From the IMG/VR virus record IMGVR_UViG_2706794664_000015: 34,883 nucleotides of DNA. The stretch is one strand, 5' to 3'. Origin of the DNA: a virus (Duplodnaviria; Heunggongvirae; Uroviricota; Caudoviricetes). Position numbers and translations under genes: made by a program. Position 1 is the stretch's first letter. Every line of letters begins with the position of its first letter. The notes under the pieces were generated by a model. The model made no database searches, was not told where the DNA came from, and worked only from the letters and a program-made list of their open reading frames with translations. Below, in pieces: positions 9,066 to 12,740 of the stretch.

Positions 9066-9239
9066 TCAGCCGTTGTCAGTGTCCAGTGAGTAGTTTTTAA
9101 AGCGGATGACCTCCTGACCGAGCCAGCCGTTTATCTCGCGGATCCTGTCCTGTAACGGGATAAGCTCATTGCGGACAAAGACCTTTGCCACTTTCTCAAT
9201 ATCACCCAGCGACCCGACGTTCTCCGGCTTGCCCCCCAT
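9066..9239 (-). pseudogene. Q: Portal protein gene Q, 3' fragment (separated from the 5' part by the IS)
   Basis: Minus-strand frame translates ...GKPENVGSLGDIEKVAKVFVRNELIPLQDRIREINGWLGQEVIRFKNYSLDTDNG* ending at 9066; abuts the IS left end at 9240. Confidence 0.7.
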
Positions 9240-9338
9240 TGCGTATTCCGCTCTATTCGATCACGGATTGGCATCGAAGTTCGATCAGCGATTCGCATCC
9301 ATTCGATCAACCGGGAACTTAACTTTTTCTACCGCTTT

Positions 9339-10094
9339 TTAACTCGTTTTTTCGCTGCTTTCCACTGTCGGGGGATTTTTCCTCAGGGACTCTCCCTGAA
9401 GGACCACTCTGTGTGAGTTATGTACCAGTCTGTCCAGGATGGCATCTGCTGTTGTTGGGTTCTCCATCAGACCATGCCATTTATCTACCGGGAACTGGCT
9501 TACCACTATCGTGCTGCTTTGTCCGTAACGATCCTCTGTGATCTCCAGAAGGTCATTACACTGGGCGTTACTTAACTGTTCCAGCCCCAGATCGTCCAGG
9601 ATTAGAACCTGTATTTTTTGCAACTGTTTCAGATATTTCAGCCAACTGCCATCAACACGTCCCTGAGCCAACTGTTCCAGTAATCGCCCGGTTCTACAGT
9701 ACCGGACGCTGTATTTCTGTCGACATGCCTGTTCGCCCAGCGCATTGGCTATCCAGCTCTTACCGCATCCTGTCGGACCGGTTATCAGTAGGTTTTTCCT
9801 GTGGATTATGTAGTGGCCGTTCAGCAGTTCCCTCATCTGTTCAGCCCGCAGACCTCTTGAGGCCGGATAACGCAGCCCTTCCGGTGTTGCCTGATATTTC
9901 AGGCAGGCATTTTTTCTCAACCGTGCCACACGACTGTTTTCTCTGCTCAGAAGCTCGTCATCAACCAGCAGTGTCAGCCTTTCCTCGAACGACAGTTCGT
10001 CGTAAGTCTGAGGCGTTTCCCGTTGCCGTATCAGGCTCCCGGCCATCGCCGGGAGTTTCAGTTGGGTCAGTTTGTTTAACAGATTATCACTCAT
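9339..10094 (-). CDS. istB: IS21-family helper ATPase IstB
   Basis: Walker A GPTGCGKS; about 251 aa from ATG 10092-10094 (AAGGAA RBS); the longer ORF to 10337 would overlap istA and is probably an extension. Confidence 0.85.
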   Translation of the reverse strand: MSDNLLNKLTQLKLPAMAGSLIRQRETPQTYDELSFEERLTLLVDDELLSRENSRVARLRKNACLKYQATPEGLRYPASRGLRAEQMRELLNGHYIIHRKNLLITGPTGCGKSWIANALGEQACRQKYSVRYCRTGRLLEQLAQGRVDGSWLKYLKQLQKIQVLILDDLGLEQLSNAQCNDLLEITEDRYGQSSTIVVSQFPVDKWHGLMENPTTADAILDRLVHNSHRVVLQGESLRKNPPTVESSEKTS

Positions 10095-10110
10095 ACGGTT
10101 GTTCCTTCTG

Positions 10111-11646
10111 TCAGTGGTAGTAGCCAGGACCACGCAGGTTTTCATGCTCTGAAGCATATGCCGGATGTTGTTCGCCCTGGCGGGATAACGGAAGCTCAAC
10201 GTTATCCCGATGATGACGCAGCAGATTGTCGATAAAGCGTCTGTCCGGGGCGTTATAGTGCAGGGCAACGTAACAGGCCTTTTCCAGCCGTTCCGGGCCG
10301 TATTTTTTCTGAAGTGCCAGCAGACCCAGGACTGCACGGTAAGCCAGCTCCGGATGGGGTTTGGCTTTCAGCATGGATTCAACCACCCGGCCTGTGGACG
10401 GACCTGTACGGTTTCCCTGCTCGATAAGGCGTTCCGGTGTCCATGTCCCATGCCGCCGGTGGCGTTCTGGCATGTGAAGCGGATTGGTTGTGTGTTTATA
10501 TTCATGTGTGCTGCGCGGATGTTGCGCCACACACTGCCCCTTGTGCCAGAGCTGTACCACCGACTGCCCCACCTTCAGTGACAGACGCTGACCGACCAGT
10601 TCGTGTGGAACGGAGTACCAGTGACGGGCATATTCAACGTGGTAGTCAGGGCCAACCTTCACGGCTTTGTATTCCGTGTATTCATAAGGCTCCAGAGGCA
10701 GCGGAGAGAGTGCTGGTGCATCCAGCATGCGGAAGCGTTCTGCGCGGGTTTGATTACCGTATCCCTTCATTGGTCGGTTATTCATGTCCGTCAGCAACTC
10801 CCGAAGGCGTGCATTCAGCGCCCTGAGCGTGTGGAAGGTTTCATTACGGATGCGGGCAAGAAGCCATCGCTCGACGATGAGGACGCCGTTTTCTGCTTTT
10901 GGTTTATCTTTAGGTTTGCGCGGGCGGGCCGGGATAATAACCGTGCCATAGTGCTCAGCCAGCGCCTGATAACTGTCGTTGATGACAGGCTCATAGCGAT
11001 CGGCTTTTTTCACTGCGCTTCTGAGGTTATCGGGGATGAGCAGCTTCGGTACGCCGCCCAGGAAGGTCAGGCAACGGCTGTGGGCATTTAACCATGACAT
11101 CATGTCCTGACCTTCGCACGCTTCAACATAGGTATAGTTGGACGCCCCCATTACAGCCACGAAGATTGCCACGCGGCGTATCTCTCCGGTGTCCGGATTA
11201 ATAACAGGGACCGTAGGACCACAGAAGTCGATAAAGAGCTTTTCGCCAGCACGATGCTCCTGTCGCATGGAGAGGCGTCGCGTTTTTTTCCACTTCCGGT
11301 AGCAACGGCAGAAGTGTGAGTATCCCATCGCTTTGTCACCCGCCTGTGCCTTGTATTCCATCCACAACAGTTGGCGCGTCACGCCAGGTTTTCTCATTTC
11401 CGTATCGAAGTACAGCATGTCAGGCATAACAAGCTCTGACGCAGAGGTGTCTTTGGGCGGGAAAATGAGTTTCTCCAGCGTGTCATGGGATATATCCGCA
11501 GGTAATGGCCATGACAGAGAAGAGGCTTTGAAGCGGGCAAGAACCTCAAAAACGGTTGAGGCGCTGATGTGTAACGTCAGTCCGATACAACGGTTAGTCA
11601 GCTTCTTATCGAACTTGAGCTGAAGGATCTTAAAACAAGTTTCCAT
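10111..11646 (-). CDS. istA: IS21-family transposase IstA
   Basis: About 511 aa from ATG 11644-11646 (METCFKILQ...); N-terminal HTH region and DDE-type core typical of IstA; immediately upstream of istB. Confidence 0.85.
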   Translation of the reverse strand: METCFKILQLKFDKKLTNRCIGLTLHISASTVFEVLARFKASSLSWPLPADISHDTLEKLIFPPKDTSASELVMPDMLYFDTEMRKPGVTRQLLWMEYKAQAGDKAMGYSHFCRCYRKWKKTRRLSMRQEHRAGEKLFIDFCGPTVPVINPDTGEIRRVAIFVAVMGASNYTYVEACEGQDMMSWLNAHSRCLTFLGGVPKLLIPDNLRSAVKKADRYEPVINDSYQALAEHYGTVIIPARPRKPKDKPKAENGVLIVERWLLARIRNETFHTLRALNARLRELLTDMNNRPMKGYGNQTRAERFRMLDAPALSPLPLEPYEYTEYKAVKVGPDYHVEYARHWYSVPHELVGQRLSLKVGQSVVQLWHKGQCVAQHPRSTHEYKHTTNPLHMPERHRRHGTWTPERLIEQGNRTGPSTGRVVESMLKAKPHPELAYRAVLGLLALQKKYGPERLEKACYVALHYNAPDRRFIDNLLRHHRDNVELPLSRQGEQHPAYASEHENLRGPGYYH

Positions 11647-11877
11647 AGTGCTCCTGGATTTTCTCTTTTTGGACATTGACGTCTCCACTGGTTTAAACAC
11701 GGCAATGGAGACTGTGGTGAAAAGAGTTAATTCCCGGAGTGACTGGCGAATTCCAATCAATGATCGGAAGTATGCCAAATCGTGATCGATTGTGATGCCA
11801 AACTGTGATCGGAGATGGATGCCAAATCATGATCGATTCGAATGCCAAACTGCGATCGATTCAGATGCCATTTTGCA

Positions 11878-12740
11878 CCCATCAACTGAAAGGGGATGCG
11901 GTGCGCGTCCAGCAGGTCAGCGGCGCTGGCTTTTTTGATATTAAAAAAATCGTCCTTCGTTGCCACTTCACTGAGCGGGATAATTTTAATGCCGTCGGCT
12001 TTCCCCTGTGGGGCATAGAGAAACAGATTTTTAAAGTTATTGCGGCCTTTCGACTTAACCATGTTTTCGCGAAGCATTTCGATATCGTTGCGATCCTGCA
12101 CGGCATCGGTGACGTACATGATGTATCCGGCATGTGCGCCGTTTTCGTAATACTTGCGGCGGAACAGCGTGGCCGACTCATTCAGCCATGCAGAGTTAAG
12201 GGCGCTGAGATATTCCGGCAGGCCGTACANNNNNNNNNNNNNNNNNNNNNNNNNNNNNNNNNNNNNNNNNNNNNNNNNNNNNNNNNNNNNNNNNNNNNNN
12301 NNNNNNNNNNNNNNNNNNNNNNNNNNNNNNNNNNNNNNNNNNNNNNNNNNNNNNNNNNNNNNNNNNNNNNNNNNNNNNNNNNNNNNNNNNNNNNNNNNNN
12401 NNNNNNNNNNNNNNNNNNNNNNNNNNNNNNNNNNNNNNNNNNNNNNNNNNNNNNNNNNNNNNNNNNNNNNNNNNNNNNNNNNNNNNNNNNNNNNNGCGGG
12501 ATAAACGTTGAAGCCAGAATATTACGTTTGACGTAAATCGGTGAGCTGTGATGCACGGCAGCACGCAGGCTTTTTGCCAGACCGGTAAAGCTGACCGGCG
12601 GCNNNNNNNNNNNNNNNNNNNNNNNNNNNNNNNNNNNNNNNNNNNNNNNNNNNNNNNNNNNNNNNNNNNNNNNNNNNNNNNNNNNNNNNNNNNNNNNNNN
12701 NNNNNNNNNNNNNNNNNNNNNNNNNNNNNNNNNNNNNNNN
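11878..12740 (-). pseudogene. Q: Portal protein gene Q, 5' part (interrupted by the IS; start lies in masked sequence)
   Basis: Minus-strand ORF (track 11757..12119 and upstream) encodes portal-like sequence that reads into the IS end at 11877; start estimated near 12740 from the P2 gpQ length (about 344 aa); N-mask 12230-12495 and 12603-12892. Confidence 0.6.

Follow-up and report, generated by a model that had tools for sequence, protein, structure and literature searches.

The 34,883-nt stretch of DNA analysed here (IMG/VR record IMGVR_UViG_2706794664_000015, hereafter the window) carries a P2-like prophage whose place, in a genome of the Shigella sonnei type, is between cpxP and fieF, and the portal gene of this prophage, Q, is interrupted by a complete copy of ISSso4, an insertion sequence (IS) of the IS21 family. 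Very probably, ISSso4 transposed into Q and the prophage is defective as a consequence of this IS-mediated knockout. This is a known IS in a known gene, and prophage inactivation of this well-understood kind is already known. The initial annotation of the window, made without database searches, had placed an istA-istB element of the IS21 family at 9240..11877 within the portal gene, and these boundaries proved exact. The parts of the element and the duplicated target are as follows.

9240..11877, minus strand: complete ISSso4 element (IS21 family), 2,638 bp, with ends 5'-TG...CA-3'
10111..11646, minus strand: istA, transposase of 511 aa (NCBIfam NF033546 transpos_IS21, 287 bits, cut-off 160)
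9339..10094, minus strand: istB, helper AAA+ ATPase of 251 aa (Pfam PF01695 IstB_IS21 at 5e-60)
11750..11877, minus strand: istA-proximal end, with terminal TGCAAAATGGCAT and then five CGATCN4WTTGGCAT repeats (putative IstA binding sites)
9240..9310, plus strand: istB-distal end, with terminal TGCGTATTCC and then full repeats at 9258-9274 and 9282-9298 and a partial third
9235..9239, unstranded: left copy of the target-site duplication, CCCAT, which on the minus strand is Q codon 288 (ATG) plus GG of codon 289
11878..11882, unstranded: right copy of the target-site duplication, CCCAT

The 2,638-bp block aligns end to end with RefSeq copies annotated as 'IS21-like element ISSso4 family', which sit in E. 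coli chromosomes and plasmids, at an identity that rounds to 100%; it differs by one mismatch from a copy on an IncFIB plasmid (L002) and by one from a copy in another prophage locus (L020). The name ISSso4 is taken from such copies, named by the NCBI pipeline, at an identity of 99.96% or more. In addition to the family-level match listed above, the istA product contains the Pfam domain Mu-transpos_C_2 (PF22483) at 7e-20 and scores 32.2 bits with rve (PF00665), marginally under the cut-off of 32.6, and its coordinates agree with the annotated istA of the plasmid copy. The istB start codon lies 16 nt past the istA stop, and the product scores 252 bits with NCBIfam NF038214 ('IS21-like element helper ATPase IstB'; cut-off 200). 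Exactly the same IstB protein occurs in 3,336 blocks of public assemblies, and ISSso4 is a multi-copy element, with at least four copies in single genomes. The window copy thus has the istA, the istB, the terminal repeats and the short target duplication of an IS21-family element. With its reading frames and ends intact, and with independent insertions that differ from it by at most 1 nt, this copy would appear to be active in an IstA/IstB-dependent manner.

The two ends of the element support the same assignment. The element starts TGCGTATT and finishes ATTTTGCA, and the strictly inverted part is confined to the terminal TGC/GCA. A scan with the pattern CGATCNNNNWTTGGCAT, in which up to one mismatch was allowed, found a 17-nt unit, CGATCN4WTTGGCAT, seven times in the 34.9-kb window, every copy lying in the outermost ~130 bp of the IS, when 0.10 copies would be expected by chance; none of 100 shuffles reached seven. 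The repeats are spaced 22-24 nt apart and are inverted in orientation (the left end has two, on the plus strand, and the right end has five, on the minus strand), so that the reiterated inverted motifs which had been noticed at both termini are indeed found there and only there. Ends of IS21-family elements are known to carry multiple direct repeats about 23 bp apart that have to be bound by IstA, together with a terminal CA (PMC10122671), and the window element matches this published architecture. It likewise resembles the IS21 and IS5376 prototypes in its istA-istB operon, which encodes a DDE transposase and an AAA+ helper, in its CA-ended terminal repeats with direct repeats about 23 bp apart, in its 5-bp duplication and in having no strong target consensus (PMC10122671; PMC11208146). 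It differs from them at the istA-proximal end, where it has five full repeats plus the terminal one and the prototypes have an L1/L2 pair. At 2,638 bp it is also longer than the prototypes, IS21 being about 2.1 kb in length.

The identical CCCAT pentanucleotides at 9235-9239 and 11878-11882, which the initial annotation had recorded correctly as a target duplication, could be compared with two uninterrupted sites. In the prophage of E. coli JNE120442 (L001), the site reads ...GCCGCCCAT|CAACTG... with a single CCCAT, and the left and right flanks of the window overlap by exactly 5 bp upon it; in S. sonnei 53G (L019), there is likewise one CCCAT and a 5-bp overlap of the flanks. Because the pentanucleotide is single-copy at both empty sites, its presence on either side of the element is not a chance match. 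Target duplications in the IS21 family range from 4 to 8 bp, and other ISSso4 copies with the same element boundaries are also flanked by 5-bp duplications, AGGAG on the IncFIB plasmid and CTTTA in L020. The three targets (ATGGG, CTTTA and AGGAG) have no motif in common, and IS5376 was found to generate 5-bp direct repeats in vitro while IS21-family elements show no strong target specificity (PMC10122671). A resident ISSso4 copy would have transposed into Q through the usual IstA/IstB pathway; the target ATGGG (Q nt 862-866) was cut with a stagger of 5 bp, which left CCCAT on both sides. With respect to the other ISSso4 copies of S. sonnei and E. coli, the window copy shows no structural difference (the same termini, the same istA and istB lengths of 511 and 251 aa, a 5-bp duplication and at most 1 nt of sequence difference), and it is particular only in its site, Q nt 862-866 of a P2-like prophage.

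The interrupted gene is recognizable as the P2-type portal gene from three fragments, which are separated by the element and by runs of N.

9066..9239, minus strand: Q 3' fragment, codons 288-344 plus stop
11883..12229, minus strand: middle part of Q, which holds codons 173-287 (its first two bases belong to a partial codon) and runs on into the IS
12496..12602, minus strand: Q 5' visible fragment, codons 55-89 (Q nt 162-268)
11757..11877, minus strand: IS-encoded read-through tail of 39 codons, AKWHLNRSQF...HTSDH, with the stop at 11757-11759
12230..12495: scaffold gap of 266 N (246 nt in relatives), hiding Q codons 90-172
12603..12892: scaffold gap of 290 N, as compared to 256 nt in relatives, which covers Q codons 1-54 together with the 3' end of the terminase gene P

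Only Q codons 55-89 and 173-344 are therefore visible in the window, and they are almost invariant with respect to phage P2. The 3' fragment is identical to P2 gpQ at 56 of 57 residues and to the JNE120442 portal at all 57, the middle fragment is identical to P2 gpQ 173-287 at all 115, and frame 1 of 12496-12602 reads PPVSFTGLAKSLRAAVHHSSPIYVKRNILASTFIP, which is found verbatim in P2 gpQ (35/35) and whose DNA is 100% identical to that of 53G. When the flanks of the element are joined on the minus strand, they read ...RIPFQL-MGGKPENV..., uninterrupted across the junction, and yield 172 gap-free residues, 171 of which are identical to P2 gpQ 173-344. The reported course of the gene, which runs into the IS on the right, resumes on the left and stops at 9066, is thus borne out by a frame that is continuous over 172 codons. 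It had further been proposed that excision of the element in silico should restore a Q open reading frame (ORF) of about 344 aa; the 172 codons across the junction are indeed continuous, but upstream of codon 173 the frame meets stops. A 344-codon ORF does not appear because the lengths of the N runs differ from the true lengths, and its absence is no evidence against the portal reading. The start of Q, which had been put at about 12740, falls inside an N run.

The insertion point lies after Q nt 866, and the IS has the same orientation as Q. As it stands, the interrupted gene encodes Q residues 1-289 followed by 39 IS-derived residues, the latter annotated inside a 120-aa gene in the source assembly, and has lost the conserved C-terminal 55 residues, which sit on a separate 57-codon ORF. 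In the intact relative, the portal matches PF04860 (Phage_portal) over residues 89-327 with 53 bits (cut-off 39) and TIGR01540 over residues 52-332 with 251 bits (cut-off 166), although the isolated Q fragments of the window have no Pfam match on their own. Since both matches span residue 289, the break interrupts the conserved portal domain. Isolated P2-like phages have the lost C-terminus with 100% conservation, and it can be detected in 391 phage records, with identities that fall below 60% in Burkholderia and Ralstonia phages. In S. sonnei 53G, the portal of the related prophage is intact at 344 aa.

How far the junctions themselves can be trusted depends on the source of the window. Look-ups of exact proteins traced it to contig CWSV01000010.1 (GCA_001255555.1), which it matches with 0 mismatches over 15,501 bases and with coinciding N runs, at whose edges the gene calls of the contig end exactly. 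The assembly was scaffolded from short reads and has gaps, seen as 10 N runs inside the window, two of which are listed above; the rest are given here.

16068-16325, 16520-16769 and 17607-17856: scaffold gaps (N runs)
20705-20968, 21472-21736 and 23121-23373: scaffold gaps (N runs)
31438-31710 and 32310-32570: scaffold gaps (N runs)

All ten are in late (head or tail) genes and none is in the early or cargo region. Because the runs of 266 and 290 N correspond to 246 and 256 nt in relatives, they are scaffold gaps of estimated size, and the N runs of the window are to be read as such and not as sequence of known length. In a gapped short-read scaffold that holds a multi-copy element, it could be imagined that scaffolding or gap-filling placed the IS between the two halves of Q, so that these halves are in fact contiguous, or that each abuts a different ISSso4 copy following recombination between IS copies. 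Shigella genomes do undergo IS-mediated rearrangements, and IS630-family elements lie at prophage breakpoints in two related loci (L018 and L021). We nevertheless consider such an artefact or hidden rearrangement highly improbable. The sequence is continuous across both junctions, where a site that relatives have once is perfectly duplicated over 5 bp, which a mis-join would not create, and an independent assembly common to 13 samples has the same left junction and stops 29 nt into the IS. The rearrangement variant, moreover, still leaves Q disrupted.

This independent assembly, Logan contig L025 (SRR11142356), has 0 mismatches to the window over 9,268 nt (window 1-9268) with the exception of one 64-nt indel, and it encodes the same 688-aa product of the replication gene A, described below. 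Since the contig is common to 13 samples and carries the same left junction, the insertion is not a one-off assembly accident and would mark a sublineage. Further searches for the junction returned little. None of 5,426 complete E. coli genomes covers both of its sides; this collection is composed of assemblies labelled Escherichia coli only and its best match to the window flanks is 96% identical, and the S. sonnei-type source appears to lie outside it. An exact 38-nt junction scan of a species-representative genome collection gave 0 matches, and a look-up of the 120-aa fusion ORF returned the source assembly only, as would be expected because short-read contigs break inside the IS.

What the insertion would mean for the phage follows from the place of Q in the P2 life cycle. 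The portal forms a dodecameric vertex of the head, from which assembly of P2 procapsids proceeds and through which DNA is packaged by the terminase, and classical P2 genetics established Q as an essential head gene whose loss blocks head formation. Because Q is essential and the 55 lost residues lie inside the conserved portal domain, the truncated portal would be unable to assemble or to function, and the prophage would be unable to build DNA-filled heads, in keeping with the loss of packaging that the initial annotation had proposed. By the same reasoning, it would be unable to supply heads to a P4-type satellite. In contrast to an amber mutation in P2 Q, the lesion in the window consists of an inserted IS, which deprives the portal of its last 55 residues.

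The surroundings of Q bear on the question of whether other functions would be affected.

9045..9060, minus strand: tQ-like intrinsic terminator found by a terminator scan, just past the Q stop, with P2 tQ at the equivalent place
8880..8898, plus strand: cos cohesive end, GGCGAGGCGGGGAAAGCAC, intact, identical to the annotated cosL of P2 (NC_001895), 341 bp from the IS
12893..14569, minus strand: terminase large-subunit gene P, visible part, 98% identical to the JNE120442 prophage without gaps

The order cos-tQ-Q-P is that of P2, with O, N, M and L on the opposite strand, and, by the P2 annotation, P lies upstream of Q in the same P-Q operon, of which Q is the last gene. Because Q is followed by tQ and then cos, no polar effect on other phage genes would be expected, and the insertion would leave cos and the cargo genes untouched, as well as those tail, lysis and head genes that are visible. 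The converse possibility, that the IS drives expression of the downstream cargo, was set aside, as the tQ-like terminator and cos intervene and no promoter-like site is seen at the IS end.

The intact cos site, identical to cosL of P2, and the visible late genes, which align without gaps to those of the intact relative, also favour a second explanation, in which the insertion is real and particles are still made. Residues 1-289 of Q with their 39-aa tail could be functional, since some portals of other phages tolerate C-terminal truncation, or the intact portal of another P2-like prophage in the same genome could complement the defect; the confinement of all ten gaps to late genes might stem from the presence of another such element, similar enough to collapse in the short-read assembly. 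This explanation seems very unlikely to us. The lost segment lies within PF04860 and TIGR01540 and is conserved across distant P2-family phages, gene A is also frameshifted and the product of P2 gene A is cis-acting, and no second P2-like element was observed.

The frameshift in gene A, which the initial annotation had likewise reported, is the other lesion of note in the prophage.

3435..5501, plus strand: replication gene A, in which a 1-nt deletion near 5467 (AAA to AA) shortens the product to 688 aa as compared to 765

The deletion is called relative to the JNE120442 prophage, and it is probably real rather than a sequencing error, because the same 688-aa product is encoded in the contig common to 13 samples. 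It would constitute a second lesion, independent of the insertion. If a defective prophage is taken to be one in which at least one gene essential for virion production or replication is disrupted, then the prophage can be described as defective with good support, so far as its genes can be read: the IS splits Q, the 1-nt deletion truncates A, and both genes are known from P2 genetics to be essential. The rest of the visible prophage can be aligned to that of JNE120442 without gaps; the exceptions are the 64-nt deletion, a few small non-coding indels around cos and two variable regions, the tail-fibre segment and the G/FI cargo region, for which there is no alignment. In comparison with L025 and a further locus (L003), the window lacks 64 nt at 2638/2639, between the imperfect repeats CGCGTGGAG and CGCGGGGAG, and a DUF2732 ORF of 74 aa is thereby reduced to 64 aa; since the otherwise identical L025 is without this deletion, it is either peculiar to the strain or a collapse of the assembly.

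Several points weigh against an IS knockout of Q as the cause of the defect. First, the source is a gapped short-read scaffold, in which an IS that is multi-copy and 2.6 kb long makes physical contiguity no more than probable, and the interior of the IS may be a consensus of all copies. Second, about 40% of Q (codons 1-54 and 90-172), together with the 3' end of P, lies in gaps, where further lesions would be invisible. Third, a sequence search of the PDB with the intact portal gave no match at E <= 0.01. Finally, the prophage of 53G has a 1-nt deletion that splits the capsid gene N into 174 + 182 aa (relative to L015; at ~2066 of L019), the equivalent of which (~16180) falls in a window gap, and the prophage may thus already have been defective before the IS arrived.

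ISSso4 has entered Q of this prophage on at least one other occasion. In locus L020 (GCA_013838625.2 CP179990.1, 2986-5623), a separate ISSso4 lies in Q after nt 178 with the duplication CTTTA; the prophage is the same, with 100% identical flanks and with the IS oriented as in the window, and its gene A is intact (765 aa). No further case of an IS in Q was found in ten gpO and ten ISSso4 neighbourhoods. In addition, 4 of the 29 ISSso4 sites in the ISMapper table of Hawkey et al. (PMC7373316, supplementary file 9) lie within 16 kb, at 4062906, 4067434, 4067936-4068065 and 4079059 in IS-free 53G coordinates, and by a rough estimate of coordinates, made without gene mapping, this cluster of four is possibly at or near the prophage. 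Among those supplementary files of PMC7373316 that were searched, none contains the words 'portal', 'terminase' or 'capsid', and the study has no discussion of the prophage or its portal.

Frameshifted portal genes, for their part, appear to be common in P2-like prophages. The 57-aa C-terminal Q ORF was tried as a marker of other IS carriers and discarded, as it returned 278 blocks of public assemblies, in which it is called as a gene of its own, and those inspected proved to be unrelated 1-nt frameshift alleles and not IS insertions. In the inspected loci (L005-L014, Q region at locus ~5140-6174) Q has a 1-nt deletion, mostly T7 to T6 at Q nt ~795, while in others it is situated at nt 697 or 738; short-read assemblies of Sequence Read Archive runs are the source of some of them.

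The second insertion, the cluster of four sites (53G coordinates 4,062,900-4,079,059, roughly at or near the prophage) and the frequency of portal frameshifts raise the question of whether the hit was random at all. Q, or the prophage as a whole, could be a preferred target of ISSso4 through a regional preference of the IstB target-selection machinery. Alternatively, it could be a locus at which knockouts are selected in S. sonnei, with virion production killed and the defence cargo (the Dcm methylase, the DUF262 and HEPN genes and the 472-aa gene described below) retained, so that lytic risk or exploitation by satellites is removed. We regard a non-random hit as unlikely. Only two events have been observed, the three targets share no motif in a family that is without strong sequence specificity (PMC10122671), the Hawkey coordinates cannot be mapped to genes, and the ten ISSso4 and ten gpO neighbourhoods yielded no further case. 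Prophages may simply be dispensable targets in an IS-rich genome.

An ordinary knockout of Q by transposition thus remains our preferred interpretation, and its setting can be narrowed down. Outside the IS and the gaps, window 5501-15000 shows 100% identity to HE616528.1, the sequence of S. sonnei 53G (strain name as in PMC5447701), where the prophage lies at about 4,442,000-4,474,000. In a study in which 126 S. sonnei genomes were mapped, 53G was found to carry 12 IS types, one of them ISSso4 (PMC7373316). From the identity of the flanks to 53G and the presence of ISSso4 among its IS types, we infer that the host of the window prophage is an S. sonnei isolate. Because the IS is at most 1 nt away from other copies and the flanks are identical to the uninterrupted 53G allele, the insertion would be a recent event confined to a sublineage. 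These same two observations do not favour the description of the prophage as 'domesticated' in the initial annotation; they point to recent, lineage-restricted decay of a kind typical of IS-rich Shigella.

The cargo genes are intact ORFs, as had been stated, and window 5501-9239, in which they lie, is 100% identical to S. sonnei 53G.

5818-8694: cargo module between gene A and cos, of three genes: a Dcm-type cytosine methyltransferase (plus strand), a HEPN gene (minus strand) and a DUF262 gene (minus strand)

The HEPN protein is of the MAE_28990 type, and the DUF262 protein (DUF262/GmrSD_N) matches the PADLOC models NsnA at 1.7e-54 and PD-T4-2_A at 2.5e-35. In other P2-like prophages, the position of the module is a variable slot beside the portal gene, occupied by retron, SIR2, FRG and other genes. 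A 472-aa ORF at 26415-27833 (minus strand), between the tail-fibre assembly gene and the sheath gene FI, takes the place of different genes in the JNE120442 prophage; it is a full-length match to phrog_13435 (unknown function), and searches of Pfam, NCBIfam and PADLOC gave no match. The repressor of the window prophage is short (97 aa) and presumably of the P2 C type, and P2-type prophages are not SOS-inducible.

Three related loci show other forms of rearrangement of this prophage. L017 is the same prophage without the stretch from mid-Q to gene E and without part of the early region, and in L018 and L021 IS630-family (DDE_3) elements bound the cos-to-C segment, with uhp genes beyond, which could have arisen by either deletion or inversion. 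All three were retrieved by exact match to a cargo protein, so that their cargo is intact by construction, and retention of the cargo in them was for that reason rejected as evidence of domestication.

In summary, the prophage would best be marked in annotations as Q::ISSso4 with a frameshifted gene A. It stands close to the IS-driven pseudogenisation described in Shigella by Hawkey et al. 2020 (PMC7373316), with which it shares the organism group and the IS type, and it would add one more instance of IS-driven gene loss in Shigella, here leaving a prophage that is fixed in place, headless and of no help to P4, with its anti-phage cargo intact. Wider interest lies only in the possible recurrence of ISSso4 in Q, which may reflect target choice in the IS21 family or selection for the taming of a prophage.

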